Assembly: GCA_963825165.1 (NCBI GenBank)
Contig: CAWGRY010000006.1
Location: forward strand, 396,220 to 460,219
Direction of reading: 5' to 3'
Length of the DNA: 64,000 bases
Origin: an uncultured Bacteroidales bacterium
Lineage (GTDB): Bacteria; Bacteroidota; Bacteroidia; Bacteroidales; VadinHA17
This document shows, one piece after another, positions 11,564 to 63,199 of this stretch; position 1 is the stretch's first letter, and every line of letters starts with the position of its first letter. Made by a program: the position numbers and the translations under genes. Under the pieces are notes generated by a model. It did not search any database. It saw only the letters and a list, made by a program, of their open reading frames with translations, and was not told the DNA's origin.

Positions 11564-12700
11564 ATGGAATTTCTAATCGAAGGCGTTACTCTTATCACCT
11601 GGCAACAGGTGCTGATGTGGATAATAGGCGGCACCCTCATCTACCTTGCAATATCAAAACAACTCGAACCGTCTCTCCTCCTGCCAATGGGGTTCGGCGC
11701 AATACTGGTCAACCTGCCTCTGTCAGGCGCCCTCAACCAGAACCTCGAAGGCATCGGCGAGGTCAGCGGAATAATCGACTGGCTCTTCAAGGTGGGCATA
11801 GGAGCATCAGAAGCCATGCCACTGCTCCTGTTTATAGGCATAGGAGCAATGATCGACTTCGGACCCCTGCTGTCCAACCCGAGACTGCTGCTGTTCGGCG
11901 CCGCAGCCCAGTTCGGCATTTTCGCCACGGTGGTGATAGCCGTGCTGCTGGGATTCGAGATGAAAGACGCAGCATCAATAGGCATAATCGGGGCAGCGGA
12001 CGGACCGACATCAATACTGGTGTCGCAGGTGCTGAAAAGCAAATATATAGGGCCGATAGCCGTCGCAGCATATTCATACATGGCGCTGGTGCCTATAATC
12101 CAGCCTTTTGCCATCAAACTGGTCACGACGAAAAATGAGCGGAAAATTCGGATGAAATATAACCCGAAAAGCGTGTCAAGATTGACCAGGATACTCTTCC
12201 CGATAGTGGTCACCATAATAGCAGGCCTGGTGGCACCGGCATCCATAGCCCTGGTGGGATTCCTGATGTTCGGCAACCTGATAAGGGAGTGCGGCGTGCT
12301 AAGATCACTGTCTGATACCGCCCAGAAAGACATGGTGAACCTGATCACCCTGCTGCTCGGCATAACCATCGCCGCCAGCATGAAAGCGGAACTGTTCGTG
12401 TCGCTCGATACAATGAAGATCATGGCCCTTGGCCTGCTGGCATTTATTTTCGATACCATAGCCGGGGCATCATTTGCAAAATTCATGAACCTGTTCCTGA
12501 AGGAAAAAGTCAATCCCATGGTCGGTGCAGCAGGGATATCAGCATTCCCGATGTCGTCGAGGGTGATACAAAAACTGGGACTGGAAGCAGACCCGCAGAA
12601 CCACCTGCTGATGCATGCAGTGGGAGCAAACGTGTCGGGCCAGATTGCGTCAGTAATAGCAGGCGGTGTGATAATAGGTCTTATGTCAGGATTAATGTAG
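11564..12700 (+). CDS. sodium ion-translocating decarboxylase, beta subunit (OadB/MmdB/GcdB family)
   Basis: 378 aa and polytopic. Family-typical strings are present: LLLPMGFGAILVNLP, IGIIGAADGPTSI and AAYSYMALVPIIQP. Confidence 0.9.
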   Translation: MEFLIEGVTLITWQQVLMWIIGGTLIYLAISKQLEPSLLLPMGFGAILVNLPLSGALNQNLEGIGEVSGIIDWLFKVGIGASEAMPLLLFIGIGAMIDFGPLLSNPRLLLFGAAAQFGIFATVVIAVLLGFEMKDAASIGIIGAADGPTSILVSQVLKSKYIGPIAVAAYSYMALVPIIQPFAIKLVTTKNERKIRMKYNPKSVSRLTRILFPIVVTIIAGLVAPASIALVGFLMFGNLIRECGVLRSLSDTAQKDMVNLITLLLGITIAASMKAELFVSLDTMKIMALGLLAFIFDTIAGASFAKFMNLFLKEKVNPMVGAAGISAFPMSSRVIQKLGLEADPQNHLLMHAVGANVSGQIASVIAGGVIIGLMSGLM

Positions 12701-15783: not shown

Positions 15784-15789
15784 CTGCAG

Positions 15790-16821
15790 ATGAGGATGAA
15801 AAGAATATTATTATATCTGCAGGCGCTTGCCATTCTGACATTGCTGACCGTGTCGTGCGAGGAGGTGATCCCGTTCAAGGGTGAGAAGATCGATCCTAAG
15901 ATCGTGATATATTCACTGCTTCAGCCTGACAGCGTAATTACGGTATCTGTCGCAAAGAGCCATGCTGTCTTTGAAGAGAAGTATGTACCCAGACAGATAA
16001 CCGATGCCGTGGTGAAGCTTTACCGCGACGGTGAGTTGCTTGAAACGCTGACCTATGTTCCGCCTGAGCCGCAACCGGAATATTATTCGGCTATACCCTA
16101 TTCAAAGTATGTGTCGCAGGGAGTGAAACCCGCTTATGGCAGCACGTACATGATCGAGGTGGAGATGGCAGGGATGAAGAAGGCAGCAGGCGAGGCAAGG
16201 CTCCCTGATATTATACCGGTCATTGGCCTTGATACAATTGAGAACCTGCCGGTTGGGGGAAATCTCATTATGGAAGCTAAAGTCAGGTTCAGAGATCCGG
16301 GAGGGGAAAATAATTTTTACAGGATAGCTGCCCGGTGCGCAGAGGGCATGTATTACGGGGATAAGTCAGTGCCCTGGTCACCGGAAATGCCGGTTTCAAT
16401 ATATGAGAACGACTGCAGCTATGCCTCAGACAATGACCCGGTAATAAGTCCACAGAAGGAGGAGCAGGATCTTTTCGGCATGCAGATTGAGAACACATAT
16501 CACATATTCAGTGATGAACTTATAGCCGGTAAGGAGTATGCCCTGACCCTGGAACTAAATCACAGGCAGCCGGACACGGATTATTACGAGTTTTCTTTAT
16601 TCAATTTTGAGCTTCAGTCGATAACGGAGGATTTTTACATGTACCTGCGAACGTCATCGGCTCACATGCAGACCTTCGATGACTATATCACCGAGCCGGT
16701 GCTGGTTTTCACCAATATTGAAAACGGACTGGGCGTTGTGGGGGCGATGTCATCGTCGGCAGTAACTCTGAAAATAGGAGAGTATCCTGTCGATGGGGTG
16801 ACGTATGAGGTTATAAGGTAA
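15790..16821 (+). CDS. DUF4249-like lipoprotein partner of the TonB-dependent receptor
   Basis: The lipobox reads LLTVSCEE. It lies directly downstream of the TBDR with a 6-nt gap. The family assignment is from memory of the conserved TBDR-DUF4249 pairing and needs an HMM check. Confidence 0.65.
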   Translation: MRMKRILLYLQALAILTLLTVSCEEVIPFKGEKIDPKIVIYSLLQPDSVITVSVAKSHAVFEEKYVPRQITDAVVKLYRDGELLETLTYVPPEPQPEYYSAIPYSKYVSQGVKPAYGSTYMIEVEMAGMKKAAGEARLPDIIPVIGLDTIENLPVGGNLIMEAKVRFRDPGGENNFYRIAARCAEGMYYGDKSVPWSPEMPVSIYENDCSYASDNDPVISPQKEEQDLFGMQIENTYHIFSDELIAGKEYALTLELNHRQPDTDYYEFSLFNFELQSITEDFYMYLRTSSAHMQTFDDYITEPVLVFTNIENGLGVVGAMSSSAVTLKIGEYPVDGVTYEVIR

Positions 16822-48663: not shown

Positions 48664-51600
48664 ATGAAAGCTGACTTTTTATTTGAAACAAGCTGGGAAG
48701 TATGCAATAAGGTGGGAGGCATTTATACTGTCATTTCAACCAAAGCGCTGAATGCCACTCACGAATACGGGGACAATTATGTACTGATAGGGCCGGATGT
48801 CTGGCGTGATGACAAGACAAACCCTGAATTCACACCTGACGATACCATGTTTCTTCAGTGGAAGGCTGTTGCCGCCCAGGAAGGTCTGAACGTCAGGACC
48901 GGACGCTGGAATATAAAAGGACAGCCGCGCGTGATGCTGGTTGATTTCACTCCTTATTTCGGTCAGCAGAATGAAATATTTGCCCGTTTCTGGGAAACAT
49001 ATAAGCTTGACAGCATTTCGGGACAATGGGACTATATTGAACCTGCACTGTTCGGTTATGCTGCCGGAAAAGTGATCGAGAGCTTCACCACCTATTACCG
49101 CGAGTTTCCAAGGGTTGTTGCACAGTTTCATGAATGGATGACAGGTACCGGTGTACTCTATCTGGAAAAAAACGCACCCTGGATTACCACGGCATTTACA
49201 ACCCATGCAACGGTGCTGGGCCGCAGCATTGCCGGCAATAACAGGCAGCTATACAGCAAGATTAACGAGTACAACCCGGCGCAGATATCGCATGAGCTTA
49301 ACGTAACCTCAAAGCAGTCGCTCGAAAAGATCACTGCCTCTACGGCTGATGTGTTCACGGCAGTGAGTGAGATCACCGGACGTGAGTGTCTTGCCTTCCT
49401 CGGTAAAAATCCGGACGTTATTACTCCGAACGGTTTTGAGGATACTTTTGTCCCTGCTGCGGAGGACTTTGAGGCCATCAGAAATGCGGCACGGGAAAAA
49501 CTGCTTTTTGTAGCAGGAACCCTGCTGGGATACACCCTTCCTGCAGATACGCTGCTCATTTCAACAAGCGGCCGGTATGAATACAGGAATAAGGGAATTG
49601 ACCTCTTCCTCTCTTCGCTGGGAGCAATAAACAAACAGGTGGATACGAGCCGCCAGTGCGTTGCCTTCATTCTTGTCCCGGCATATCACAAAGGCCCCAG
49701 GCAGGATCTTATGACGGCACTGAACAGCGGGTCCTTTGTTACTGATGGTGACAGATATCTTACCCACGGCCTTCATTATGTCAATGAAGATCCGGTGATC
49801 AACCAGCTTATCAGAGAAGACATCAAAAACCTTCAGGGAGACAGGGTTAAGGTAATTTTCGTTCCGTCATATCTCAACGGCGATGACGGCATCTTCAACA
49901 AAACTTACTATGAACTGCTTATCGGGTTTGACCTGACAATATATCCGTCGTATTATGAGCCATGGGGTTATACGCCCCTTGAGAGCCTCATGTTTCATGT
50001 ACCCACTGTCACTACAGACCTCTCGGGATTTGGTATGTGGGTAAATACTTATTTCAAAGACCCGGGTAACGGTTGTCTGATCCTGCACCGCACTGATGAC
50101 AACGAGAAGGAAGTCATCGCCGAAATGGAGAAGCTTATCCGGTGTTTTATGCAGATGAGCATGGGAGATGCGGGAATTGCCAGGGACAAAGCATGGGAAA
50201 TATCACGCATCGCTAACTGGAACACCCTTTTTCATTTTTATACTGATGCCTATACTTTTGCCCTTGAAAAGAGCGAAGACCGGGGCGGGCAGCCAAGGGA
50301 TTATGCGCGCATACTGGAAGCTACCGAAGTGCAGGTTCGCAAACCTTACCAGGTCCCGGTATGGAAGGATATTTACGTTCAGTCGGAGCTGCCTGAACGC
50401 ATTGGTTATCTGAAAGACCTTGCCTCCAACCTGTGGTGGTCATGGAACAGCGATGCCGAGTTCCTCTTCCGCCGGATGGACCCTACCCTTTGGGAAGAAG
50501 TATCGCATAATCCTAAACGATTGCTCGAGACAATTGATTACAAGAGGCTCGTTGTGCTGGCAGATGATGAGGTCTTTCTCGAAGACTCAGACAGGATCTT
50601 CAGGCAGTTCAATGAATATCTTGCGAGACCTGATAACAATGAGCTTCCTTCGGTGGCATATTTCAGCATGGAGTTTGGCATTCATCCTTCTCTTAAGATC
50701 TACTCGGGAGGACTTGGTGTTCTTGCCGGTGATTACCTGAAGGAGGCCAGTGACTCAAATGTCAGGATCACTGGAATAGGGTTACTCTACCGGTATGGGT
50801 ATTTCAGGCAGAAGCTCGGCCCGAAGGGTGAACAGCAGGCAATCTATGAGTTGGAAGATTTTTCCCAGATACCGGTTACCCCGGTCAAGGATTCCATAAA
50901 CAATCCGCTTACCATCTTTCTCACCTGGCCGGGACGAACAGTTAAAGCCCGTGTATGGCTTGCCTCCGTAGGGAAGGTCAATCTGTTCCTGCTCGATACG
51001 GATATTGAAGAAAACACTCCGGAAGACAGGGCTATAACACACTACCTGTACGGAGGCGATTCGGAGAACAGGCTGAAACAGGAGCTTATACTTGGTATCG
51101 GAGGCATGCGTGCACTCATTGCACTTGGCATCAAGCCCGACATTTACCACAGCAATGAAGGCCATTCTGCATTCATCGGGTTCGAACGCATGCGCCATCT
51201 TATCGAAGATGACCACCTAACTTTTGAACAGTCACTTGAGATCATCAGAGCGTCAACTCTTTTTACCACTCATACCCCCGTGCCTGCGGGGCATGATGCT
51301 TTTGAAGAAGATCTCCTCAGGAAATATATCTCGCATTATCACACCAGGCTTAACATAACATGGGATCAGCTGATGGCCCTCGGGCGCTGCCAGGGCGATA
51401 ATGACCGTAAGTTCAATATGAGTTTTCTGGCCACACGCTTCTCCCAGGAGATGAACGGTGTGAGCCAGCTTCACGGCAAGGTTTCACGCGGCCTCTTCTC
51501 GAAACTGTGGCCCGGATACCTCAAAGAGGAACTGTATATCGGTTATGTGACCAACGGAGTTCACTATTCGACATGGGTAGCCCCGGAATGGGAGCAGATT

Positions 51601-52887
51601 TACGAAAAGCTGACCGGAACGAAGAATTTTGACCAGAGCGACAGGGAGCAGTGGAGCAAAATATACGAGGTTGAAGATCAGAAGGTGTTCGAGACCAAGA
51701 TGAAGCTCAAGAAGCGGCTCTTCGATCATATACGCAAACGCCTGCAGACCAATATGCTTGAGAGGCATGTCAGCCCCCGCACATTAATGAACATCAGCAG
51801 TCATCTGAACGAGAAGGCGCTTACCATCGGTTTTGCCAGACGGTTTGCCACTTACAAGAGAGCGACGCTTCTATTCCGCGATCTCGACAGACTGGCAAAA
51901 ATTGTCAATAATGCAGAGAGACCTGTTCAGTTTATCTTTGCCGGCAAGGCACACCCCAATGACGGCGGAGGACAGGATCTGATAAGACGTATCAATGAGG
52001 TCTCCCAGATGCCGCAGTTTGCAGGTAAGGTGCTTTTCCTCGAGAACTATGACATGGAGATGGCCAGGTACCTCGTCCGCGGGGTAGATATATGGCTTAA
52101 CACTCCCACACGACCGCTGGAAGCATCAGGTACCAGCGGCGAGAAGGCTGTCATGAACGGTACGATACATTTCAGCGTGCTCGACGGATGGTGGGTTGAA
52201 GGGTATCATGCTTTCGCCGGATGGGCCCTCCCGAAAAAACGGACATATACGAACCAGGATCTCCAGGATGATGTAGATTCCGAGACGATATACAATATGC
52301 TGGAATACGAAATAGTTCCTGCTTATTATTCAAGGGATACCGATGGTATCCCCCGCGAGTGGACCAGCTACATCAAGAACACGATGGTAAAAGTGGCTCC
52401 GGAGTTCACCACCAGGCGTATGCTTAGTGATTACCTCGAAAGATATTATACCAAGCTGTATGAGAGGAGCAAGCGAATGACGGCCAATGACTACGCTCTT
52501 GCCCGTGAGCTTGCTGACTGGAAAAGCGAGATAACCAGGAAGTGGGATGAGATTGAAATCATCAAGTATGATTTCAAGAATGCCATTAAAAATGTTTACC
52601 GTTCAGGCCATAACTACTCCACTGAGATAATTCTTGACATAAAAAATATTCCTCCTGAGAATGTAGGGGTTGAATTTGTGGTTACCCGTCAGATGCAGAA
52701 TGGCGAGCATGTTTTTTTCACAAGCAAGGAATTCAAACTGGTCAGCAAAAAGAAAGGGCGGGTAATATACGGTGTCGAGTTTCAGCCTGAGATGGCAGGT
52801 ACGTTTTTCTACGGGATCCGTATTTATGCCAAGCATAAGGAACTCCCCAACAGGCAGGATTTCTGCCTGCTTAGGTGGGTTGACTGA
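48664..52887 (+). CDS. fusion protein: GT3 (eukaryote-type) glycogen synthase N-terminal half plus GT35 alpha-glucan phosphorylase C-terminal half
   Basis: The N-terminus FETSWEVCNKVGGIYTVISTKA is GT3-like. From about residue 560 the sequence reads NLWWSWN...AYFSMEFGIHPSLKIYSGGLGVLAGDYLKEASD...EASGTSGEKAVMNG, which is GT35 with the PLP-Lys region. It is a single uninterrupted 1407-codon frame. Confidence 0.85.
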   Translation: MKADFLFETSWEVCNKVGGIYTVISTKALNATHEYGDNYVLIGPDVWRDDKTNPEFTPDDTMFLQWKAVAAQEGLNVRTGRWNIKGQPRVMLVDFTPYFGQQNEIFARFWETYKLDSISGQWDYIEPALFGYAAGKVIESFTTYYREFPRVVAQFHEWMTGTGVLYLEKNAPWITTAFTTHATVLGRSIAGNNRQLYSKINEYNPAQISHELNVTSKQSLEKITASTADVFTAVSEITGRECLAFLGKNPDVITPNGFEDTFVPAAEDFEAIRNAAREKLLFVAGTLLGYTLPADTLLISTSGRYEYRNKGIDLFLSSLGAINKQVDTSRQCVAFILVPAYHKGPRQDLMTALNSGSFVTDGDRYLTHGLHYVNEDPVINQLIREDIKNLQGDRVKVIFVPSYLNGDDGIFNKTYYELLIGFDLTIYPSYYEPWGYTPLESLMFHVPTVTTDLSGFGMWVNTYFKDPGNGCLILHRTDDNEKEVIAEMEKLIRCFMQMSMGDAGIARDKAWEISRIANWNTLFHFYTDAYTFALEKSEDRGGQPRDYARILEATEVQVRKPYQVPVWKDIYVQSELPERIGYLKDLASNLWWSWNSDAEFLFRRMDPTLWEEVSHNPKRLLETIDYKRLVVLADDEVFLEDSDRIFRQFNEYLARPDNNELPSVAYFSMEFGIHPSLKIYSGGLGVLAGDYLKEASDSNVRITGIGLLYRYGYFRQKLGPKGEQQAIYELEDFSQIPVTPVKDSINNPLTIFLTWPGRTVKARVWLASVGKVNLFLLDTDIEENTPEDRAITHYLYGGDSENRLKQELILGIGGMRALIALGIKPDIYHSNEGHSAFIGFERMRHLIEDDHLTFEQSLEIIRASTLFTTHTPVPAGHDAFEEDLLRKYISHYHTRLNITWDQLMALGRCQGDNDRKFNMSFLATRFSQEMNGVSQLHGKVSRGLFSKLWPGYLKEELYIGYVTNGVHYSTWVAPEWEQIYEKLTGTKNFDQSDREQWSKIYEVEDQKVFETKMKLKKRLFDHIRKRLQTNMLERHVSPRTLMNISSHLNEKALTIGFARRFATYKRATLLFRDLDRLAKIVNNAERPVQFIFAGKAHPNDGGGQDLIRRINEVSQMPQFAGKVLFLENYDMEMARYLVRGVDIWLNTPTRPLEASGTSGEKAVMNGTIHFSVLDGWWVEGYHAFAGWALPKKRTYTNQDLQDDVDSETIYNMLEYEIVPAYYSRDTDGIPREWTSYIKNTMVKVAPEFTTRRMLSDYLERYYTKLYERSKRMTANDYALARELADWKSEITRKWDEIEIIKYDFKNAIKNVYRSGHNYSTEIILDIKNIPPENVGVEFVVTRQMQNGEHVFFTSKEFKLVSKKKGRVIYGVEFQPEMAGTFFYGIRIYAKHKELPNRQDFCLLRWVD

Positions 52888-52888
52888 T

Positions 52889-54907
52889 TTAAAGATCTTT
52901 GATGCCTTTTACCTGTTCCCAGAGCAATACCATTGCAGTACGGGCGGGAAGATAGAGTTTGAGATGATGAGGTGCCGTTACTCCGTAGCGGCCCTGGTCG
53001 GGTACCGAAAAATAGCTCTGCGAAGTGTCTATGCGCCCCTGTCCGCCAAACAACGGGTCATCAGTGTTGAGGACGATCCTGAATTTGCCCTTTATGGGTA
53101 TGCCGTAACCTGTAAATGATCTTGTCGGGTTGAAGTTCATGACCGTCAGCAGCTCGCCGCGTTTGAAGGCAATTATCTTATCCGCATTGTTTACGGTTAT
53201 GACTTCTGTCATCTGCACCTGGGGCAGATCGTGTTTCTTGCCAGTTTCAATCATCGCCCGGTCAAATTCATCGAGATGACGGTATCGCAGCAGGCTGTTA
53301 TCGGCGAGGCTCCATTGTCTGCGGGCATATTTGTAGCTCCAGTTATTTCCCTCCCTCGGGAAGTCGATCCACTCGGGGTGGCCGAACTCGTTACCCATGA
53401 AGGTCAGGTAGCCGCCGCCGGCACAGATGAAGGTGAAGAGCCTTATCATCTTATGCAGTGCAATGGCGCGGTCGATTATCAGGCTGGGTGTAGTGATGCT
53501 CATCGAGGTGTACATTTCGGCATCTGCAAGCCTGAATATCAGTGTTTTGTCACCCACGAGGGCCTGGTCGTGCGATTCGCAGTATGACACAACGCGTTCT
53601 TCCGGACGGTGCTGTGTCAGTTCATGCAGGAGAAAGCCCAGATCCCAGTTTTCATCAGGGATCTCCTTCACCATCTTGATCCAGATGTCAGGCACACCCA
53701 TGGCCAGCCGGTAATCAAACCCTATGCCGCCGGAGTCAACCGATGCTGCCAGTCCCGGCAGCCCGCTCATCTCCTCGGCTATGGTTGTTGCGCCGGGGTT
53801 AAATGCATGTATCAGTTTATTGGCCAGTGTGAGATAGACTATCGCATCGCCGTCCTGGTTTCCGTTAAAGTACTGTTCGTATGATGTGAAATTCGAACCG
53901 AGACCATGATCATAGTACAGCATGCTGGTGATCCCGTCAAAGCGAAATCCGTCGAAGCGGAACTCCTCAAGCCAGTATTTACAGTTTGACAGGAGGAAAT
54001 GGGCAACCTTGGGCTTACCGTAATCGAAGCATAGCGAGTCCCATGCCACATGTTTTCTTCTGGCTCCCTTATGGAAGTAAAGCCCCGGGTCTCCGTCGAG
54101 TAATCCCAGTCCTTCGAGCGTATTGGAGACGGCATGCGAGTGAATAAGGTCCATGATCACTCTGAGACCCATGCCATGGGCAGTATCAATCAGTTCCTTG
54201 AGTTCATCTGGGGTGCCGAAGCGTGATGAGGGTGCAAAGAAATTGGAGACGTGGTACCCGAATGAGCCATAATAAGGATGCTCCTGCACAGCCATGAGCT
54301 GCACGGTGTTGTAGCCCAGCCGGCTTATTCGCGGCAGCACCTTCTCTGTGAATTCTCGGTAGGTGCCTGTTCTCTCTTCTTCGGTGGCCATGCCGACGTG
54401 TGCCTCGTAGATGAGGATAGCCGGTGGCGGCGGCGGCGAGGGATTTTTCATCACATAGCTCTGAGGGGGCTGCCATACCTGTGCTGAGAAGATCTTTGTG
54501 TTTTCATCCTGAACGGTGCGGGTGGCATAGGCGGGGAGCCGGTCGCCGCCGCCGCCCCTCCATCTGACTGCCAGCTTGTAAAGATCACCGTGTGACAGCT
54601 TGCCTTCATCAAGCTCTATCACCCAGTCACCACCTCCCTCCGGGTGCAGATTGTAACTGCCGTCATCTTTCCATCCGTTGAAGGTGCCGATGAGCGATAT
54701 GCCGGAGGCATGTGGAGCATGCTCCCTGAAAACCCATCCCTTTTCCGTCCGGTGAAGGCCGTACCAGTGATGACCGTTGGCAAAATCAGAAAGAGGGTTA
54801 CCCCCGGTAATGATAATCTCACGGTCATTGCAGTACGTCAGACGTCCTTCAATTACCCCCCTGAAGGGATCAAGCCACGGGTCGATATCGTAAAACCTCT
54901 CTTTCAA
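52889..54907 (-). CDS. glgB: 1,4-alpha-glucan branching enzyme (GH13, eukaryote-like subfamily)
   Basis: 672 aa. YDIDPWLDPF is at the N-terminus. GFRFDGITSM, GNEFGHPEW and YCESHDQ are GH13 conserved regions. The start codon is TTG at 54907 and there is no in-frame upstream ATG. Confidence 0.85.
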   Translation of the reverse strand: MKERFYDIDPWLDPFRGVIEGRLTYCNDREIIITGGNPLSDFANGHHWYGLHRTEKGWVFREHAPHASGISLIGTFNGWKDDGSYNLHPEGGGDWVIELDEGKLSHGDLYKLAVRWRGGGGDRLPAYATRTVQDENTKIFSAQVWQPPQSYVMKNPSPPPPPAILIYEAHVGMATEEERTGTYREFTEKVLPRISRLGYNTVQLMAVQEHPYYGSFGYHVSNFFAPSSRFGTPDELKELIDTAHGMGLRVIMDLIHSHAVSNTLEGLGLLDGDPGLYFHKGARRKHVAWDSLCFDYGKPKVAHFLLSNCKYWLEEFRFDGFRFDGITSMLYYDHGLGSNFTSYEQYFNGNQDGDAIVYLTLANKLIHAFNPGATTIAEEMSGLPGLAASVDSGGIGFDYRLAMGVPDIWIKMVKEIPDENWDLGFLLHELTQHRPEERVVSYCESHDQALVGDKTLIFRLADAEMYTSMSITTPSLIIDRAIALHKMIRLFTFICAGGGYLTFMGNEFGHPEWIDFPREGNNWSYKYARRQWSLADNSLLRYRHLDEFDRAMIETGKKHDLPQVQMTEVITVNNADKIIAFKRGELLTVMNFNPTRSFTGYGIPIKGKFRIVLNTDDPLFGGQGRIDTSQSYFSVPDQGRYGVTAPHHLKLYLPARTAMVLLWEQVKGIKDL

Positions 54908-54954: not shown

Positions 54955-57318
54955 TTATTCCGGCCGATTTATATCAATCAACTCTGTTATGTTAAAAGGA
55001 TACTTACCAGGGCCGGAGACAGAGATATTCAGTCTGAATGTATCAGGATAATCCGGGTACGGTAACCTGAATGAATATTCCTGGCCACCTTCGGGACTTA
55101 ACAGCGGTGACCACAGCAGGGTATTGCTTAACGAGGGACTTCTTCCGTCCTTTTCTGTGGTAAAGGCTTTGAATTTTATCTCCGGATCGGAGAACAGGTA
55201 ACTGATTCTTGTCGCTGCTTCGGGAAGAACCTGCTGCCTGTAATCTCCCTGTCTGGTAACAACATTTATGACCGGTGGCAGCAATACCTCTCCAAGCCTG
55301 TAAGGCTCAAAAGTGATATCAATATACTCGGTTTTCTCAGGGAGTATTTCCGCAATGGTACCGGGATCAGTTGTATATATACCGTCAATGAATATCATAG
55401 GTGTATCCTTCAACTCATTACCGGTAATGGGATCGAACATCCTGAAGAAGTACCCGCGGCGGCTGTTAACGAGATCTATGTTGGGAACGAGTTCAAAGAA
55501 AACCTCCTCCATATTCGGTAATGCGATAAAGTCTGACATTAACAGGTGAAAGCCGGGTTTTCCATAGAAGTGACCGATACTTTCATCAACACCTGGAAGT
55601 GCCAGGGTATCGGTCTCCGTGATATTGTAGATCCTCATGACCTGGCTGTTAATGCTCATACGCAGAACGGAACTGTCTGCTTCAGCCCTGACGGCTGCCA
55701 CTGAACTGTAAAGGGGAATAAAATCATCAGAGAATGACGCAGAGGTTTTTATTACAATATTGTCAGCAGTATCGCGGGGGTAGACAACAATCTCTGCTGA
55801 TCCCCTTCGTGGAGGAACAATGAAGTTAAATCTGCCGGCTCTGTCGGTTCTGGTATACTGAAGAAAGCAATTTTTTCCGGGAAGATTAATAAACAGGAAT
55901 TTTCCGGCGGCAGGACGGAGGTTGTCAAGATTGGTGACAACGCCGCTAACGACCAGTCCATGAGTTTCACCGGCGGTGATTGGAATTTCTTCGTGTTTGC
56001 TGTACAGATGCCTGTCATTCAGTGTTATCAGCAGGTTATCACTTATCTCCGCAACGCCTGATATGAAAGGTTCCATGAAAGGGTCATTCATTGTCGCGGT
56101 TGTGATCCAGCTGGATAAGCACGAATAGGACCGGAGGTCAATTCCAGGATGATCATCAGAAACGGTTACTGCCACAGATGCGGATGATATTCCCCGGGGC
56201 AGTCTGACAACCAGGGTATCATGCCTGATTATATAACCGATATCATTTTTCGTAACACTGTTCAGGCTTACGTCATCATTCATGAACAACCTTGATGACA
56301 AAAGATTTCCGCTATGATCGTACAGGAGGGCTTCATTAATACCCGGAGCAAGGTCACTGAAGTTTATCTCTACCGTGGTTTCTTCCTGAGCGATGTCAAG
56401 TTGTCTGTAGAAGCTTATTTTGCCCGGGCTTATTATTGCAAGGTGCAATGGTCCGGCTGCGTCACCGGTGGCTTGGACTATTATGCTTCCAGTTTGGTTC
56501 CGGAGGCCTGAGAATGCCAGCGAATAATCCGATCGTGAGTAAGGGGGAATTTCTGCCCTGACCTCCTTTGATTCTATTTGTGCCATGGCAACCAGCGTCC
56601 CGGTTTTTGAGGGTATGATATTAACCGAAGCCAGTCCTGTCGCATCGGTGGTAACGGAATCGGTGACGGTGCCTTCAGGGTCAGTGAAAAATACTTTTAC
56701 CGGCACTCCTCCACCCCCCTGGCCTGTCGACCTGACTACAACCTTATTTACTGTGCCCGGCACCATAGCACCTCCTTCAGGGTACAGGGCAAGTGACGGA
56801 CCGGCTATCTCTGCGGTAAGTCTTATCCGGTCATAGTCAGCGTCCATGGTATAAGGATTGAAAACCCTTATCCTGGAAGTGAAGAAGTGATCGGGTCCGA
56901 GAAATGCCATTGCCCTGGTATAGCCTCTCAGGATATAATCACCTGAAGCAATTGTATCAGGAAGTGACAGCAGGCCTGTCCCCGTCCCATTTTTATCAAT
57001 CAGTATCCGGCTCTGTGCGACAGGGGTATTAAGAGAGTTAAGGATTTCTGCATATCCGGCCTTACTCTGCCTTTCAGCCTTATCACCGGACCGCTGCACC
57101 AGCATCGTATACCATACATTCTCACCGGCGATGTAAATGTTACGGTCACTGATGATCAAGACTGATTCATACCCATCAATTAACGGATGCTGCCGGATGT
57201 TGATCAGAGTATCGGCAGGGTCAGTCATAGTTGTAGCCGGGCTGGCTGATGAAGAGAGACCAATCCTGACGAGGACGATAATTACCGTCAGAAGATTTTT
57301 ATTTCGCGAAGCCCTCAT
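54955..57318 (-). CDS. 787-aa secreted protein, function unknown (weak MG2/alpha-2-macroglobulin-like and carboxypeptidase-regulatory-like features)
   Basis: The ATG at 57318 gives MRASRNKNLLTVIIVLVRIGLSSSA; the track start at 57372 is TTG. ISDRNIYIAGENVWYTM resembles MG2-domain starts. It overlaps the upstream gene by 20 nt. Confidence 0.7.
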   Translation of the reverse strand: MRASRNKNLLTVIIVLVRIGLSSSASPATTMTDPADTLINIRQHPLIDGYESVLIISDRNIYIAGENVWYTMLVQRSGDKAERQSKAGYAEILNSLNTPVAQSRILIDKNGTGTGLLSLPDTIASGDYILRGYTRAMAFLGPDHFFTSRIRVFNPYTMDADYDRIRLTAEIAGPSLALYPEGGAMVPGTVNKVVVRSTGQGGGGVPVKVFFTDPEGTVTDSVTTDATGLASVNIIPSKTGTLVAMAQIESKEVRAEIPPYSRSDYSLAFSGLRNQTGSIIVQATGDAAGPLHLAIISPGKISFYRQLDIAQEETTVEINFSDLAPGINEALLYDHSGNLLSSRLFMNDDVSLNSVTKNDIGYIIRHDTLVVRLPRGISSASVAVTVSDDHPGIDLRSYSCLSSWITTATMNDPFMEPFISGVAEISDNLLITLNDRHLYSKHEEIPITAGETHGLVVSGVVTNLDNLRPAAGKFLFINLPGKNCFLQYTRTDRAGRFNFIVPPRRGSAEIVVYPRDTADNIVIKTSASFSDDFIPLYSSVAAVRAEADSSVLRMSINSQVMRIYNITETDTLALPGVDESIGHFYGKPGFHLLMSDFIALPNMEEVFFELVPNIDLVNSRRGYFFRMFDPITGNELKDTPMIFIDGIYTTDPGTIAEILPEKTEYIDITFEPYRLGEVLLPPVINVVTRQGDYRQQVLPEAATRISYLFSDPEIKFKAFTTEKDGRSPSLSNTLLWSPLLSPEGGQEYSFRLPYPDYPDTFRLNISVSGPGKYPFNITELIDINRPE

Positions 57319-58435
57319 CCCAGTAATCAGGTTTAATGTTAGATCCCATGTATGCACAATCGGTACACCCAATATTGGTGGTCAGAGCCCAGAATGTTGC
57401 TCCATTGTGGTCCTCATCTGCGTATTGATGAAGGGCAAAATAAATGGTACCCAGACCCGCAAGGGAAGAATCTGCTGGTTCCCTGTCCGTAACACATTTG
57501 TCGGTATAGTGATCGGGAGTAATAAGGCGATCCTTTATAAATATTCGTTTATAACTTACTCCTGAGACGCTGAAAAAGCCGAGTACAACTTCTGCAGGGT
57601 CAGATATGCACTGCATATTCCCGGTCACTGACACGGGGGTGACATCATACAGACCTCCGGTATTTTGCGACATGATCCTGATCTTATCCCAGAATTCATA
57701 TTCTTCCCTGCTTAGTGAATACTGTTTCACAAGCATGCTGTACTTGTACATGCCCCTGTCGGTCGAATTATTGTACGTGGTCAGTACAAGGTCTGTGACC
57801 CTGTCTTCGGAGAGTGCTTCTGTGTTGGCTATGAGAATATTATGTGACAGTTCGGACATCCAGCATATACGTTTTTCCTTTGGCAGTAGATTAAAGGGCA
57901 GGTGAAATTCCCATGTCTCTTCAAATGCCCACCGGAAATAGTGGCAACTGCCTGTTGGATCTAGTGTGCTAAGAGTTACCCTGGTTGCCTTTTCCGTTTC
58001 ACCCGAAGCATTGATTTCACGGTCAAATATTTCATAGCCGAGGCTGTCAATCGGCGGTACAGGTTTCAGTGCACTTAATGATGAAGAGTACTGCTTCCCG
58101 TTGTATTCAATATTAAGAACGTAACTTCTTCCTGTCTGGCCTGTGAATACCGTTGAGTCGCTGATGTATTTTCCGGGGCTCTTCTCCGTGAAATTATATG
58201 AATTGCCAAGATCATCACTGACAGATACCCTGGCCTTTACAGCCGGTTTTTCGGCAGATGTTTCATCAAGCGGATGCGATATACCCAGTATTATACTGTA
58301 ACGTCTGTTTTCATCCGTCACAAGACCGTTGACAGTCAGGTAATCAATCTGTGAGACAATCTCAGGAGTGAACAGACTGATACAGGAAGCGGTTGCTGCC
58401 GAAAGAAATAGTGTTATGATTTTGCTGGTCTTCAT
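57299..58435 (-). CDS. DUF4249-like lipoprotein, copy B of a tandem pair
   Basis: 378 aa with lipobox LSAATASC. It is about 92% identical to copy A over the first ~300 aa. Confidence 0.8.
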   Translation of the reverse strand: MKTSKIITLFLSAATASCISLFTPEIVSQIDYLTVNGLVTDENRRYSIILGISHPLDETSAEKPAVKARVSVSDDLGNSYNFTEKSPGKYISDSTVFTGQTGRSYVLNIEYNGKQYSSSLSALKPVPPIDSLGYEIFDREINASGETEKATRVTLSTLDPTGSCHYFRWAFEETWEFHLPFNLLPKEKRICWMSELSHNILIANTEALSEDRVTDLVLTTYNNSTDRGMYKYSMLVKQYSLSREEYEFWDKIRIMSQNTGGLYDVTPVSVTGNMQCISDPAEVVLGFFSVSGVSYKRIFIKDRLITPDHYTDKCVTDREPADSSLAGLGTIYFALHQYADEDHNGATFWALTTNIGCTDCAYMGSNIKPDYWDEGFAK

Positions 58436-58443
58436 CTCATATT

Positions 58444-58548
58444 TCAGAAATCAATCCTGTTTATGGCATAGCCAGTTGCGGTGGAAATGCTTACCCGGGC
58501 GAGGACAAGGATTACCAACAGAAGATAATTATTTCGCGAAGCCCTCAT
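58444..58548 (-). pseudogene. chimeric 34-codon junction remnant of the tandem duplication
   Basis: It translates to MRASRNNYLLLVILVLARVSISTATGYAINRIDF*. The first ~19 codons mirror the 787-aa gene start. The last codons (RIDF*) mirror the TonB-dependent receptor C-terminus (YRIDF*). Confidence 0.7.
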
Positions 58549-59662
58549 CCCAGTAATCAGGTTTAATGTTTGAACCTTTGTATGCGCAATCAGTACACCC
58601 TATGTTGGAAGTTATAGTCCAGGCTGGATTATCCGTGTCAGGGTAAGAGGTAGCACTAAGAATAAAAATTGCGGTACCCAGTCCGGGAGGTGAAGAATTT
58701 GGTGGTATATATCCTTCAACACATTTGTCAGTATAGAGATCGCGAAAAGGCAGCGATCTCTTAATGAATATTCTTTTATAACTGACCCCCGAGACGCTGA
58801 AGAAGCCGAGAACGATTTCTGAAGGGTCGGTTATGCACTGTATGTTCCCGGTCACTGACACGGGGGTGACATCATAAAGACCTCCGGTATTTTGCGACAT
58901 GATCCTGATCTTATCCCAGAATTCATATTCTTCCCTGCTTAGTGAATACTGTTTCACAAGCGTGGTGTACTTGTACATGCCCCTCTCGGTTGAATTATTG
59001 AATGTGGTCAGCGTAAAGTTTGTTATCCTGTCTTCCGATAGCGCTTCTGTGTTGGCTATGAGAATATTATGTGACAGTTCCGACATCCAGCATATACGTT
59101 TTTCCCTGGGCAGGAGATTAAATGGAAGATCCATTTCCCATGTCTCTTCAAATGCCCACCGGAAAAAGTGGCAACTGCCTGTAGGGTCAAGTGTACTGAG
59201 GGCTACCCTGGTTGCCTTTTCCGTTTCACCCGAAGCATTGATTTCACGGTCAAATATTTCATAGCCGAGGCTGTCGATCGGCGGTACCGGCTTCAGTGCG
59301 CTTAAAGATGAAGAGTACTGCTTCCCGTTGTATTCGATATTCAGAACATAACTTCTTCCTGTCTGGCCTGTGAATACCGTTGAGTCACTGATGTATTTTC
59401 CCGGGCTCTTCTCCGTGAAATTATATGAATTGCCAAGATCATCACTGACAGATACCCTGGCCTTTACAGCCGGTTTTTCGGCAGATGTTTCATCAAGCGG
59501 ATGCGAGATACCAAGTATTATACTGTAACATCTGTTTTCATCCGTGACAAGACCGTTGACAGTCAGGTAATCATCCTGTGAGACGATCTCAGGAGTGAAC
59601 AGACTGATACAGGAAGCGGCTGCTGCCGAAAGAAATAATATTATGATTTTGCCGATCTTCAT
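58529..59662 (-). CDS. DUF4249-like lipoprotein, copy A of a tandem pair
   Basis: 377 aa with lipobox LSAAAASC. It lies directly downstream of the TBDR with an 8-nt gap. Confidence 0.8.
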   Translation of the reverse strand: MKIGKIIILFLSAAAASCISLFTPEIVSQDDYLTVNGLVTDENRCYSIILGISHPLDETSAEKPAVKARVSVSDDLGNSYNFTEKSPGKYISDSTVFTGQTGRSYVLNIEYNGKQYSSSLSALKPVPPIDSLGYEIFDREINASGETEKATRVALSTLDPTGSCHFFRWAFEETWEMDLPFNLLPREKRICWMSELSHNILIANTEALSEDRITNFTLTTFNNSTERGMYKYTTLVKQYSLSREEYEFWDKIRIMSQNTGGLYDVTPVSVTGNIQCITDPSEIVLGFFSVSGVSYKRIFIKRSLPFRDLYTDKCVEGYIPPNSSPPGLGTAIFILSATSYPDTDNPAWTITSNIGCTDCAYKGSNIKPDYWDEGFAK

Positions 59663-59670
59663 TTAACGTT

Positions 59671-62403
59671 TCAGAAATCAATCCTGTAGGATATGGTTGG
59701 TATGGTTCTGCCGAATATTGACAGACTGTAGCCCTGTATCTTTCCGTGTTCAATGCGGAAGTATACGGAATAGATGTTCTCGCGCCCGGTTACATTATAT
59801 ACGGAGATATTCCATGACGGCCGGAAAGTCTTTGAGGCTTTCAGGTTGCTGTACAGATTCATGGATACATCCCACCTGAAATAATCCGGGAGCCTGTACT
59901 GGTTCCGGTCAGAATAATGGATCACATTAACTCCGTCATGAAGATACCACGTGACAGGGTAGGTTACCGGCCTGCCGGTGTAGTATACAAAATTCATGCT
60001 CCAGTTAATTCTTCTTGAATAAAGGTAACTGATCTGAAGATTAAGGTCATGCGGCCTGTCATAATTGGCAGGGTAGTAAGCTCCCTCGTTAATTAATTCC
60101 GAATCAAAGGAGCCGGTACTGCGGAGAAGAACGCGTGACCATGTATAATTCAGTGTGGTTTTAAATTTGCCCCTGTTCTTTTTAAGCATGATCTCAACTC
60201 CGTAAGCTTTGCCTTCCGCCGGGATAAGATCCTGCTCTATAAGTTCATTCATTGTCAGGATTGCTCCCCCCTTATAGTCAATAAGATTATGCAGCCATTT
60301 ATAATAGCCGTCTGCTGACAGTTCATAGTCGTTATCGAGTATGTCAAGGTAAAAGCCTGCTGCCACCTGATCTCCGTACTGTGGCCTGATATGGTAATCG
60401 CTCATCTTCCAGGTGTCGGTAGGGGAGACTGAGATGGTATTTGACAGCAGATGAAGGTATTGATAGGTTCTGTTATAGTTGATCTTAAGTGAGCTGCCGC
60501 CTGAAATCCTGTAGTTCAGTGACAGCCTTGCCTCGGGCCCAGCGTAGGCTTTTATGATGTTTCCCGGCCCGAAATAAATTGAATCTATCATAGTATTCAT
60601 CTCTTTTGAAAAGAGAGGATTATATAAATAAACCGTCTGGGGGCCCAGGGCCAGGAATGATGACAGGCGGAACCCTGCCCTTACCGTCAGGAGTCCTGCA
60701 AGCTCAGCCTTATAGTCTGCATATAGTGCTGTTTCAAGTCCTGTCTCAGTATCGATCTTTTCATTTTTTATTACCGACAGGGGAGGAACAGCTGTACGGG
60801 TTCCCGGGCTGATCAGGTGAAGGCTGGTTTCTCCTCCGAACTGCATCTCATGGCCGGAAGTAAGGTACCATGTTAAATTTGCTTTTCCTGATGTGGTATT
60901 CACCTTATGGGTCATCGTAGCTGCATATTCGGGGATGCCGGAGTTGGACACCTCGTACCTGAAATTGCTGTTGTTGAGGCTGAAGACGGCAAAGAGTGAC
61001 TGGGAGATGGCATGCCTGAACCGTGCGGCGACGATCAGGTTGTCATAGGTATAGGTGGTATCGCTGTTAAACCTGAAGCTGTCGTGGCTCAGGTATGCTG
61101 ATAGCTCGAGCTTGCTGTTCTTGCCGATGTCAGTGATGACATGCCCGTTGATGTCATAAAAACCTGCCGTACTGTTTCGCAGGGCAGCATTTGGAAGCAG
61201 ATCCAGCATCCAGTTCGAGTAGGTAGTCCTTCCGGCAAGAATAAAGGATGATTTGTCCTTTATTATAGGTCCTTCGACAGTGGCATGTGCTGCAACCATG
61301 CTTATACCCACATTACCCGAATAATCTTTTTTATTACCGTCTTTCTCGGTGATATCCATGATTGAAGAAACCCGGCCTCCGTACTGGGCAGGTATACCTC
61401 CTTTATACAGAGAGACATCGTTTATCACTTCGGAGTTCACTGAAGAGAAAAAGCCGAAGAAGTGCGACGAGTAGTACATGGGAGCGCCGTAGAGCAGGAT
61501 AAGGTTCTGGTCCGCAGAACCGCCCCTCACATTAAACCCTGCTGCACCTTCTCCGACGGACTGGACTCCTGGCATCAGCAGAACGCTTTTTAAAAGGTCG
61601 GCCTCTCCCAATGAAGAAGGCGACAGCCTGATGGTCATAATATTCATCCTTGCCATGCCGCTCTCGAGCCTGTCAAGTTTTTCCCTCCTGCTGGCCGTCA
61701 CAACGGCTTCCTTGATTGCAATAATTCGTTCAATGAGCGCAATATTTATCCGCCCGCTGGAATAAAGGTTAACATTCCTGTATGTATCGTATGATCCCAG
61801 TGACCTGTATTCCACTTTGTACGACCCTCTTGGAGCTGAAAGGGAATAATAGCCATCATGATTGGTCATTGCACCCAGGCCCAGCTCCCTGATAAAGACA
61901 GAGGCTCCGGGGATCGGTTCCCCGGTGGCATCATTAGTGATATAGCCTGACAGGTACGCCCTGTCTTCCCTGTACTTATCACCTGGCCGGCCAAAAGTAA
62001 TCATATCACTCTCTTTAGCTTTAAGGGATGCTGTCTCTAAAGTATCTTTAATGTACATGATTTGCTGATCTGCAGTGTCGTCGGAAAAGTCAGCCCTGAC
62101 CCTGTATCCTTTGGTGATAAAGATATTACCTGCCTTGTCATCAAAGCAATAGAGTCCGCGCGGAGTGATAATCATACCTATAACTTCCAGGGGTTTAGCA
62201 TTCTCCCAGGTACCTGTAACAGTCAGGTTATCAACCCATTCAATTTTATAAAATATACGGGTACCGGTTGCTGATTCAAGGCTGACGACGAAGTCACTGA
62301 AAGGCACCCCGTCAGCATGGCCGCTGAAAAGCTTGCCCTGTTCCTGTGCCGGTAGCAATATTACCGTCATTAACAGGATGACTGTTCCTGTCAGTCTCTT
62401 CAT
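59671..62403 (-). CDS. TonB-dependent receptor with N-terminal STN-like and CarboxypepD_reg-like domains
   Basis: 910 aa. VPFSDFVVSLESATGTRIFYKIEWVDNLTVTG is STN-like. YLSGYITNDATGEPIPGASVFI is the CarboxypepD_reg-like region. The plug reads DLLKSVLLMPGVQSVGEGAAGFNVRGGSADQNLILLYGAPMY. The terminal strand is ISYRIDF. Confidence 0.88.
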   Translation of the reverse strand: MKRLTGTVILLMTVILLPAQEQGKLFSGHADGVPFSDFVVSLESATGTRIFYKIEWVDNLTVTGTWENAKPLEVIGMIITPRGLYCFDDKAGNIFITKGYRVRADFSDDTADQQIMYIKDTLETASLKAKESDMITFGRPGDKYREDRAYLSGYITNDATGEPIPGASVFIRELGLGAMTNHDGYYSLSAPRGSYKVEYRSLGSYDTYRNVNLYSSGRINIALIERIIAIKEAVVTASRREKLDRLESGMARMNIMTIRLSPSSLGEADLLKSVLLMPGVQSVGEGAAGFNVRGGSADQNLILLYGAPMYYSSHFFGFFSSVNSEVINDVSLYKGGIPAQYGGRVSSIMDITEKDGNKKDYSGNVGISMVAAHATVEGPIIKDKSSFILAGRTTYSNWMLDLLPNAALRNSTAGFYDINGHVITDIGKNSKLELSAYLSHDSFRFNSDTTYTYDNLIVAARFRHAISQSLFAVFSLNNSNFRYEVSNSGIPEYAATMTHKVNTTSGKANLTWYLTSGHEMQFGGETSLHLISPGTRTAVPPLSVIKNEKIDTETGLETALYADYKAELAGLLTVRAGFRLSSFLALGPQTVYLYNPLFSKEMNTMIDSIYFGPGNIIKAYAGPEARLSLNYRISGGSSLKINYNRTYQYLHLLSNTISVSPTDTWKMSDYHIRPQYGDQVAAGFYLDILDNDYELSADGYYKWLHNLIDYKGGAILTMNELIEQDLIPAEGKAYGVEIMLKKNRGKFKTTLNYTWSRVLLRSTGSFDSELINEGAYYPANYDRPHDLNLQISYLYSRRINWSMNFVYYTGRPVTYPVTWYLHDGVNVIHYSDRNQYRLPDYFRWDVSMNLYSNLKASKTFRPSWNISVYNVTGRENIYSVYFRIEHGKIQGYSLSIFGRTIPTISYRIDF

Positions 62404-63110
62404 TCCGTCTTCGTTTTAGCAGTAAGAGAGTCGTAAAAGACGGCCGCATTAATAAATCCTGCCGGAGAACTGTTACTGAGATATAGATTTTTCTGCCGTA
62501 TAAATTTTCTTACAGGAATTTCATATTCGCCCATGAGATCAAGAAATGATGACCTGTTTCTGACCTGGAAGCAGCTTCCGTTCAGAACCAGGTAGTATTT
62601 CGTTTCCTCCCTGAACTCCGCATAATTGGCTCCGGCAGGATTTTTTGAGACAACTTTTATATGTCTGGCAATAACGGAACTGGTCCCCTGGTACAATATT
62701 TCTGCAAACCCGCTTATTCCGGGATATGTCTCCCTGAGATTAACGAACCTTTCGGGGATGCCGTTGTACACTATTGTAAACTCATCCACTTTTTTGCTGT
62801 CGATAATTATCGGTGAGCCGTTCTTCCACAGCACTATTATGCCATCATTGAAGATGTCATATTTCAGGCGTACATCCTTAAACGTTATTCCGTCGATTGT
62901 GACAGTACCGGACAGGGCTTCAGACGTAAGGAAAAACTCATGTCCTGCTGCCATCTGCATTGCAGGATGCCATTCGACTCCGCTGTACAGGAGCTGGTCA
63001 TACCAGGCAGCGTCGCTGCTCACGGGTGACATCTGGGGATTCTGGGCTTTCAATGCAGAAATGCTCAGGAAAAGAAACATGCAGCTGATTACTTTCTTGT
63101 TCAAAGGCAT
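62400..63110 (-). CDS. 236-aa secreted protein, function unknown; first gene of the TBDR operon
   Basis: Signal peptide MPLNKKVISCMFLFLSISALKAQ. It has an ATGA overlap with the TBDR start. Confidence 0.7.
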   Translation of the reverse strand: MPLNKKVISCMFLFLSISALKAQNPQMSPVSSDAAWYDQLLYSGVEWHPAMQMAAGHEFFLTSEALSGTVTIDGITFKDVRLKYDIFNDGIIVLWKNGSPIIIDSKKVDEFTIVYNGIPERFVNLRETYPGISGFAEILYQGTSSVIARHIKVVSKNPAGANYAEFREETKYYLVLNGSCFQVRNRSSFLDLMGEYEIPVRKFIRQKNLYLSNSSPAGFINAAVFYDSLTAKTKTE

Positions 63111-63199
63111 AGCGTGAGTGAATAGGTAAATTTAATACTTTACAATTTAACTGCAGAACCATCGGAAGACAACTTTTCACTGACACGCCGGGCATAGGT

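Follow-up and report, generated by a model that had tools for sequence, protein, structure and literature searches.

Organization of the locus

We analyzed a 64,000-nucleotide (nt) stretch of DNA, referred to here as the window, from an uncultured Bacteroidales bacterium of the VadinHA17 lineage (GenBank assembly GCA_963825165.1, contig CAWGRY010000006.1, positions 396,220 to 460,219). Five genes on its minus strand, spanning positions 54955-63110 and named g1 to g5 from the upstream end, encode a small secreted protein (g1), a TonB-dependent transporter (g2), two DUF4249 lipoproteins (g3 and g4) and a secreted protein whose N-terminal half resembles macroglobulins (g5). A preliminary description, made from the sequence alone, had read these genes as a translationally coupled set, and its strand, coordinates and junctions proved accurate. 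The g1 and g2 genes share an ATGA overlap (62400-62403), g2 and g3 are separated by an 8-nt gap (59663-59670), and g4 and g5 overlap by 20 nt (57299-57318); as read from these junctions, the five genes look like a coupled operon. An alternative start for g5, a TTG at position 57372, would give a protein of 805 amino acids (aa). We retained the ATG start because the orthologues are 786-787 aa long and possess the identical 20-nt overlap. Both this overlap between the DUF4249 gene and g5 and the ATGA overlap of g1 and g2 are kept among relatives of the window.

Four of the five genes form a conserved unit

Comparative genomics showed that the gene set is also kept together elsewhere, so that the refuting condition named in the preliminary description, a lack of such conservation, does not hold. 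One correction to that description is needed: the conserved unit consists of four genes, i.e., g1, the transporter, DUF4249 and g5, and not of five. The second DUF4249 gene of the window can be attributed to a local, lineage-specific duplication, because close relatives carry one copy. Among loci located via g5 or g1, more than 35 contain all four genes; these loci belong to Bacteroidales, Rikenellaceae, Chitinophagaceae, Saprospiraceae and Cytophagales. In close relatives, with g5 proteins 44-81% identical to that of the window, g1, g2, a single DUF4249 gene, g5 and the branching-enzyme-like gene glgB follow one another, with ribF divergent from g1. Synteny in this lineage spans 20 kb (ribF, glgB and others) and proves little by itself, because the whole neighbourhood is syntenic. 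All four genes were also present in distant loci (L024, L025, L027, L028, L031, L032, L047, L048, L050 and L060-L062), from which glgB and ribF are absent, as well as in L093, which was reached from the g1 side. Gene order may change while content is kept, as in L048 (g1-g2-g5, then six DUF4249 genes) and L061 (divergent arrangement), and the whole unit is tandemly duplicated in L010, L019, L020, L021 and L024.

These observations bear on the possibility that g1 and g5 are syntenic passengers and that the functional unit is simply the known transporter-DUF4249 pair. The 20-kb synteny of the close lineage would fit such an explanation, as would the presence in the window of a working-looking pair that has neither g1 nor g5. 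However, the four genes stay together despite differing neighbours, shuffled order and block duplication, and their translational coupling is conserved. We consider it very unlikely that the two genes are passengers, and rank this explanation behind the export device discussed below.

Several module copies displayed peculiarities of their own. In L010, L019, L020 and L021 (about 5.4-19.6 kb) and in L024 (5366-18692), the module occurs head to tail in two complete, diverged copies; the proteins of the second copy score about half as high against the window proteins, which indicates an old block duplication. In L013 (5437-10165), none of g1, g2 and DUF4249 is intact: every one of these genes is split or truncated, either through assembly frameshifts or because the copies are decaying. 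A metagenome-assembled genome (MAG) of the Cyclobacteriaceae (L075, 2238-15537) encodes an STN-less transporter with three DUF4249 proteins and, about 2 kb further on the same strand, two MG2-domain proteins of 947 and 901 aa; two unrelated genes, for DUF4920 and pentapeptide-repeat proteins, intervene, and this locus may or may not be a looser form of the module. In L027 (11696-12832) and L047 (10688-11824), the module is directly followed by a gene for the beta subunit of oxaloacetate decarboxylase. Genes for S9-family (prolyl oligopeptidase/DPP-IV-like) peptidases adjoin the module on the same strand in L060 (2871-5249) and L048 (18768-21335), which are unrelated loci, and give a very weak hint, from gene neighbourhood, that the cargo could be a peptide.

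The transporter and its DUF4249 partners

The g2 protein possesses a signal peptide, an N-terminal extension (NTE) of the CarbopepD_reg type, a TonB-box-like motif, a plug domain (PF07715, 34.1 bits against a cut-off of 23.9) and a C-terminal phenylalanine. The TonB box is a motif match only, although its consensus, LKExVVxA, is kept across 15 homologues. A C-terminal 22-strand barrel is putative in g2, which itself gave no match to the Pfam barrel model; it is, however, 33% identical over its full length to an 808-aa paralogue encoded elsewhere in the window, which matches the barrel model PF00593 (E = 2e-21). The SusC/RagA model TIGR04056 gave 45.5 bits on g2, and because this lies far under the cut-off of 368.25, g2 is by this measure not a SusC. 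The 808-aa paralogue forms, with a 343-aa DUF4249 lipoprotein, the minimal pair that had been noted in the preliminary description, and it comprises NTE, plug and barrel, without an STN domain. A hidden Markov model (HMM) scan of the window revealed no second g1, g5 or STN.

Both g3 and g4 belong to DUF4249 (PF14054, cut-off 28.5 bits), with scores of 132.2 bits (E = 3e-38) and 137.6 bits (E = 8e-40), respectively, and, in agreement with the preliminary description, are not SusD-like. Each has a lipobox (AAAS/C18), the cysteine of which is present in all orthologues. No solved structures related to DUF4249 were found. The two genes are 88% identical in DNA and their products 85% identical in amino acid sequence; on this comparison they are a recent tandem duplicate confined to this lineage, a feature that the preliminary description had not noted. 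DNA identity exceeds 93% over nt 1-900, drops to approximately 65% over nt 900-1080 and returns to approximately 100% over the final 60 nt. A second copy of the end of g2, ACAGGATTGATTTCTGAAA, is present in the g3/g4 spacer and marks the junction of the duplication. The divergent patch (aa ~300-356) sits between the conserved cysteines C314 and C357/C360, and is the most variable segment among 22 DUF4249 homologues.

Duplication of the DUF4249 gene reaches an extreme in an Imperialibacter sp. MAG (L048, 11623-18701), where six tandem paralogues represent a marked expansion of the putative lid genes.

A small secreted protein accompanies the STN-like domain

The extra ~125 residues at the N-terminus of the window g2 did not, on their own, match any Pfam model, including STN. 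In contrast, a profile built from 20 orthologous N-termini matched the signalling domain of PupA (2A02; E = 3.9e-4), with a weaker match to the corresponding domain of HasR (E = 0.12). The Pfam STN model (PF07660) was matched by four of the 20 orthologues (best E = 1.7e-7) and the related FecR_C model by six. The N-terminus is STN-like, as the preliminary description had it, when seen with the family profile. The same description had remarked that no extracytoplasmic function (ECF) sigma or anti-sigma gene is adjacent, and this holds well beyond the window, where the neighbours are ribF and a GH13/CBM48 gene: no such gene lies beside any module copy examined, nor among the 20 immediate flanking genes scanned in the distant loci.

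Instead, the constant companion of the STN-like domain is g1. Searches with component HMMs placed g1 directly upstream of all 38 full-length STN-bearing receptors examined, whereas STN-less receptors were without it, both in the fetched loci (three of three) and in the 808-aa paralogue of the window. The g1 protein starts with a signal-peptidase-I signal ending in ALKA/Q, followed by a strongly conserved N-terminal motif (D33, W36, QLLY, G44, E46, W47). An AlphaFold2 (AF2) model, with a predicted local distance difference test (pLDDT) score of 69, shows a beta-rich core and three C-terminal helices. No match to g1 was found in Pfam, NCBIfam or PADLOC, and neither a profile search of the PDB nor Foldseek yielded a sequence or fold match. 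Searches with the family profile recovered 3,920 clusters at 50% identity with E <= 1e-3, of which 1,611 reached E <= 1e-10; the best 150 hits are all short proteins, full-length members having ~230-280 aa. By these searches, g1 represents a large family that is without a Pfam or NCBIfam model and belongs to no described family.

We also considered whether g1 might be the truncated periplasmic domain of a FecR-like anti-sigma factor. This was rejected, as none of 46 family members matched FecR (PF04773) or FecR_C (PF16344) at E <= 10 and no PDB or fold match was found.

The constitution of g2 and g1 raises the possibility that the module is mainly a sensor, in which ligand binding by g2 and DUF4249 would be relayed through the STN-like domain and g1 to an unlinked regulator, transport being secondary. 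The STN-like N-terminus, its co-occurrence with g1 without exception, the lack of adjacent sigma or anti-sigma genes in the modules examined and the description of the DUF4249-linked BT2172 as a signal-transducing transporter are all compatible with such a role. However, the only targeting element of g1 is a cleavable signal peptide; having neither a transmembrane anchor nor a cytoplasmic domain, it cannot itself reach the cytoplasm. Together with the lack of FecR or FecR_C similarity in the 46 family members, and with an intact TonB box and plug in g2 that imply real transport, this renders a primarily sensory function unlikely.

A macroglobulin-like protein with a barrel-less plug-like domain

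The preliminary description had likened the N-terminus of g5 to MG2 domains. This was correct but incomplete, as it overlooked CarbopepD_reg-like and plug-like domains in the C-terminal half. The Pfam MG2 score, 31.9 bits, falls just short of the cut-off of 32.8, which homologues exceed. The AF2 model (pLDDT 79, predicted TM-score 0.76) comprises an array of macroglobulin (MG) domains, a helical linker, the CarbopepD_reg-like domain, the plug-like alpha/beta domain and a small beta-sandwich. The top Foldseek matches were complement C3/C4/C5, TEP1, CD109 and the alpha-2-macroglobulins of Salmonella and E. coli (E = 1e-13 to 1e-11; C4b/C3 and bacterial alpha-2-macroglobulin, E = 8e-14). The g5 family profile matched the plugs of RagA/SusC (E ~ 1e-8; RagA, 1.2e-8) and the MG2 domain of C3, and hhalign aligned residues 453-696 of g5 collinearly with the NTE and plug of g2 (residues 147-361; E = 2.5e-5). 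There is no beta-barrel in g5, the plug-like domain being followed by ~85 residues modelled as the small sandwich, and no TonB-box-like motif precedes that domain. Based on the profiles and the model, g5 is an MG array fused to a barrel-less NTE and plug-like domain, and is not itself a transporter. In module-linked homologues (587-837 aa), the N-terminal MG2 domain and the entire C-terminal half are invariant, while the middle MG domains number 0-2.

The preliminary description had suggested that the extended operon could represent a distinct uptake or surface-capture system. For g5, a periplasmic location is more likely than a role in surface capture, because its signal peptide is of the ordinary kind and both a lipobox and a type IX secretion system (T9SS) sorting domain are missing. 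Its orthologues likewise possess signal-peptidase-I signals without a lipobox or T9SS sorting domain, and neither g5 nor g1 matched the sorting-domain models Por_Secre_tail, CHU_C or TIGR04183 in Pfam and NCBIfam at E <= 0.1. With neither element present, g5 was rejected as a T9SS cargo or a lipoprotein.

A surface location could nevertheless be reached by another route, if the transporter-like barrel were an export or surface-assembly device that moves g5, and perhaps g1, outward to yield a macroglobulin-like capture protein. MG/Ig arrays typify extracellular binding proteins, the copy number of the middle MG domains in g5 varies in the manner of a spacer stalk, and in Myxococcus the TonB-dependent transporter Oar reportedly mediates secretion of PopC (PMC6434023). 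Against this, the conserved half of g5 consists of an NTE and a plug, domain types that face the periplasm in all transporters of solved structure; g5 has no lipobox or T9SS sorting domain; and the DUF4249 partners are predicted importer lids. We know of no precedent for transporter-mediated secretion in Bacteroidota, and regard export by the module as very unlikely.

The Foldseek matches to the Salmonella and E. coli alpha-2-macroglobulins and to C3/C4/C5, together with the profile match to the MG2 domain of C3, would also be expected if g5 were a periplasmic protease trap or envelope-protection factor of the alpha-2-macroglobulin type that merely travels with the transporter. Yet g5 contains only two cysteines and no CxEQ thioester motif, has no TED, CUB or A2M match in Pfam, and at 787 aa is too short for bait and thioester domains. 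Moreover, many orthologues dispense with middle MG domains while the half containing the NTE and plug-like domain is invariant, and the conserved 20-nt overlap with DUF4249 argues for a transporter-linked role. A protective role of this kind is extremely unlikely, and a genuine alpha-2-macroglobulin trap was rejected, since both thioester and bait region are missing.

Distant homologues of g5 are found among proteins annotated as barrel-less "TonB-dependent receptor plug domain-containing proteins", such as BT1139, BT4200 and BT4324 of B. thetaiotaomicron, which are mentioned by Price et al. (bioRxiv 10.1101/2023.03.17.533168), and P0053 of Pedobacter. Like g5, these proteins combine MG2, CarbopepD_reg and Plug without a barrel. 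They differ in being 800-960 aa long, in being encoded apart from transporter-DUF4249 genes, singly or as tandem pairs, and in scoring at or near the Pfam Plug threshold. No paper on the function of these barrel-less proteins emerged from a literature search.

This MG2-CarbopepD_reg-Plug superfamily (~800-960 aa) also occurs in Sphingobacteriaceae, Flavobacteriaceae and Cytophagales, as solo genes, tandem pairs or quartets (L006-L008, L033, L036, L039, L070, L072, L073, L077, L079, L083 and others). In Pedobacter-like genomes, the barrel-less MG2-plug gene always adjoins dcd. In L009 (14557-17204), the g5 orthologue is split into open reading frames (ORFs) of 605 and 286 aa, either by an assembly frameshift or because the copy is decaying.

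Neighbouring genes and other features of the window

Upstream of g1 lies a divergent ribF-type gene, with 126 nt between the two. This intergenic region contains a box, TTAAATTTAC, whose core positions do not vary between the window and five aligned relatives, and which is a putative Bacteroidota -7 promoter element, being a near-match to TAnnTTTG; exact matches to TAnnTTTG in this region were present on the ribF strand only. Scans for sigma-70 promoters and terminators found sites no more numerous than in shuffled sequence, and are uninformative for Bacteroidota.

The glgB-like gene downstream of g5 (Table 1) adjoins the module in close relatives, even overlapping g5 in L001, and is not beside it in distant loci. 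It is outside the conserved module, though it may be co-transcribed with g5 in the window. A functional tie between the module and glycogen genes was rejected as lineage synteny, distant modules being without glgB. None of the five proteins matched PADLOC at E <= 0.01, and membership of an anti-phage defence system was rejected on this basis.

Convergent to the glgB-like gene, a 1,407-aa ORF (48664-52887, plus strand) encodes a fusion of a glycogen-synthase-like (Glycogen_syn/GT5) domain, DUF3417 and an alpha-glucan phosphorylase; this fusion is kept in all close relatives (1,407-1,409 aa). An oxaloacetate decarboxylase gene of the kind found next to the module in L027 and L047 lies just upstream of the minimal pair in the window (11564-12700), and may reflect coincidence or a shared chromosomal site. 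Finally, a 150-aa ORF (10935-11387, minus strand) matches the Pfam Baculo_p33 (sulfhydryl-oxidase-type) model with 28.4 bits against a cut-off of 25, which is unusual in a bacterial genome.

Table 1. Features of the module and of its surroundings, in window coordinates
Feature	Position	Strand	Length or residues	Basis or remarks
g1	62400-63110	-	236 aa	ORF list
g2	59671-62403	-	910 aa	ORF list
g2, STN-like domain	62089-62334	-	~res 24-105	family profile
g2, CarbopepD_reg NTE	61699-61953	-	res 151-235	Pfam CarbopepD_reg_2
g2, TonB-box-like KEAVVTAS	61690-61713	-	res 231-238	motif match only
g2, plug	61372-61596	-	res 270-344	Pfam PF07715
g3	58529-59662	-	377 aa	ORF list
g3, variable patch	58604-58765	-	~aa 300-353	g3/g4 comparison
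g3/g4 spacer	58436-58528	-	93 nt	second copy of last ~19 nt of g2 at 58442-58460
g4	57299-58435	-	378 aa	ORF list
g4, variable patch	57368-57538	-	~aa 300-356	g3/g4 comparison
g5	54955-57318	-	787 aa from ATG	ORF list
g5, MG-domain array	56164-57168	-	res 51-385	MG2 match at res 53-131
g5, helical linker		-	res 395-452	AF2 model
g5, CarbopepD_reg-like domain	55693-55956	-	res 455-542	model and profile
g5, plug-like alpha/beta domain	55219-55551	-	res 590-700	model and profile
g5, small C-terminal beta-sandwich		-	res 703-781	AF2 model
Conserved box (putative -7 element)	63126-63135	-		in the ribF/g1 region, ~16 nt ahead of the start codon of g1
GH13/CBM48 branching-enzyme-like (glgB-like) gene	52889-54907	-		Pfam; 47 nt downstream of g5, same strand
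Minimal pair	13357-16821	+	808 aa and 343 aa	Pfam; TonB-dependent receptor 13357-15783, DUF4249 lipoprotein 15790-16821

Relation to known systems

In Bacteroidota, nutrients are captured predominantly by TonB-dependent transporters that have lipoprotein lids. To our knowledge, the only well-understood accessory proteins of such transporters are surface lids and, in signalling systems, sigma/anti-sigma pairs. Price, Deutschbauer and Arkin proposed that the DUF4249 protein BT2173 is the lid of BT2172, on the basis of AlphaFold-Multimer contacts at the outer face, cofitness and adjacency in dozens of genera (bioRxiv 10.1101/2023.03.17.533168; PLoS One 2024, PMC11003636); BT2172 has been described as a signal-transducing transporter in the four-gene locus BT2170-73 ("PUL27") of B. 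thetaiotaomicron. As with g2 and g3/g4, a non-SusC transporter with CarbopepD_reg, plug and barrel (the last putative in g2) stands beside a DUF4249 protein, in a pairing conserved across Bacteroidota, and the g2-DUF4249 pair belongs to this kind. The preliminary description was right to call the pairing widespread; its view of the mechanism as uncharacterised overlooked the proposal of a transporter and lid. The published unit is, however, the pair, as the papers name no g1-like or MG/plug-like partner, and the likeness drawn here is to the published description. Apart from incidental mentions, the Price papers were all that full-text searches with DUF4249 and with B. thetaiotaomicron locus tags yielded.

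Three further groups of systems resemble single parts of the module. The SusCD/RagAB "pedal-bin" complexes and XusAB (PDB 9GBC) likewise pair a TonB-dependent transporter possessing an NTE with a surface lipoprotein lid, and the NTE and plug of both g2 and g5 match RagA, SusC and XusA by profile. The lid here is DUF4249, however, rather than SusD or DUF4374, and g2 fails the SusC/RagA model; we know of no SusCD or Xus system with a barrel-less plug protein or a g1-like protein. In FecA-FecR-FecI, PupB-PupR and HasR, an STN-type domain precedes the TonB box as in g2, whose profile matches PupA and HasR, but the module has no adjacent ECF sigma or anti-sigma gene, and g1, which is invariably next to it, is secreted and soluble and shows no detectable similarity to FecR. 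Finally, the N-terminal half of g5 shares an array of MG beta-sandwiches with the alpha-2-macroglobulin/complement proteins (ECAM of E. coli, Salmonella alpha-2-macroglobulin, C3), from which it differs in having no thioester, bait or CUB/TED, in being half their size or less and in its transporter-like C-terminal half. The four-part module and a barrel-less plug protein on an MG scaffold appear to have gone undescribed so far. In the locus, a TonB-dependent transporter of the lid type is thus joined by two accessory proteins that are conserved and uncharacterised.

A candidate four-component uptake module

We propose that the locus encodes a self-contained TonB-dependent outer-membrane uptake module of four components, two of which are periplasmic accessory proteins. 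We give this reading a probability of about 0.55, and consider each of the four explanations discussed above, i.e., a sensor only, export in the manner of Oar, a protease trap and mere synteny, to be less likely. The domain identities, the coupling of the genes, the conservation of the four as one unit and the co-occurrence of STN and g1 are shown by the analysis; the cellular locations, physical contacts and direction of transport in the following scheme are those that we infer. Its best-supported core, by analogy, is a transporter with a surface lid, because of the published contacts between BT2172 and BT2173, their cofitness and their conserved adjacency. In this core, g2 would serve as the energized channel, with its TonB box, plug and putative barrel, and the DUF4249 lipoproteins would be its lid or substrate-binding partners at the cell surface. 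As g3 and g4 differ mainly in the hypervariable C-terminal patch, carrying both probably widens or splits the ligand specificity.

The small periplasmic protein g1, translationally coupled to g2, would most likely be the periplasmic partner of the STN-like domain, given the strict co-occurrence of the two, the translational coupling and the absence of sigma/anti-sigma genes. It would thereby occupy the place that the periplasmic domain of an anti-sigma factor holds in classical cell-surface signalling. For g5, the ordinary signal peptide, the periplasm-type domains and the conserved coupling to DUF4249 argue for a periplasmic subunit. Its C-terminal half copies the periplasm-facing half of a transporter and its N-terminal half is a macroglobulin-like scaffold, and it may bind the transporter/TonB system from the periplasm or receive the imported substrate. 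Taken further, this would amount to a new TonB transport architecture, in which STN talks to a soluble periplasmic g1 instead of an anti-sigma factor, and a barrel-less "half-transporter", g5, is a stoichiometric periplasmic subunit that engages TonB or the periplasmic face of the transporter, or takes over the cargo from the channel. We put this more specific version forward tentatively, as a possibility with the odds against it.

Several points weigh against the uptake module proposed here. The AF2 model of g1 is mediocre, with low confidence in the most conserved segment, which leaves co-occurrence as the evidence for contact between g1 and STN. The STN and barrel of the window g2, and the Plug and MG2 of the window g5, lie under the Pfam thresholds, and their assignments come from family profiles. 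The residues that follow the lipidated cysteine in the window DUF4249 proteins, CISLFTPE, are weakly acidic and are not a textbook surface-export signal; other DUF4249 orthologues are more acidic at this point, e.g., CIEPFEPE. We know of no precedent for the role of a barrel-less plug-like domain. As to the substrate, no clue is given by the neighbourhood, since the 20 flanking genes scanned are mutually unrelated and the heterogeneous neighbours include no recurrent metabolic gene, nor by RNA elements, as neither the window region nor seven distant loci gave an Rfam match to a riboswitch or other RNA. Lastly, having been assembled through g5 or g1, the tally of loci is not an unbiased census.

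The duplicated lids and their single hypervariable patch point to the DUF4249 region as the part that probably sets ligand specificity. By the predicted architecture of g5, a transporter half made of NTE and plug can occur barrel-less, carried on a macroglobulin-like scaffold. Should the more specific architecture outlined above be real, the g1 and g5 families would be obligate parts of a four-protein machine and would constitute a new class of transporter accessory proteins. As true subunits, they would make three questions testable: the periplasmic binding partners of the poorly understood NTE and STN domains, the function of the orphan barrel-less plug proteins, and the way in which signalling-type transporters work without sigma factors.

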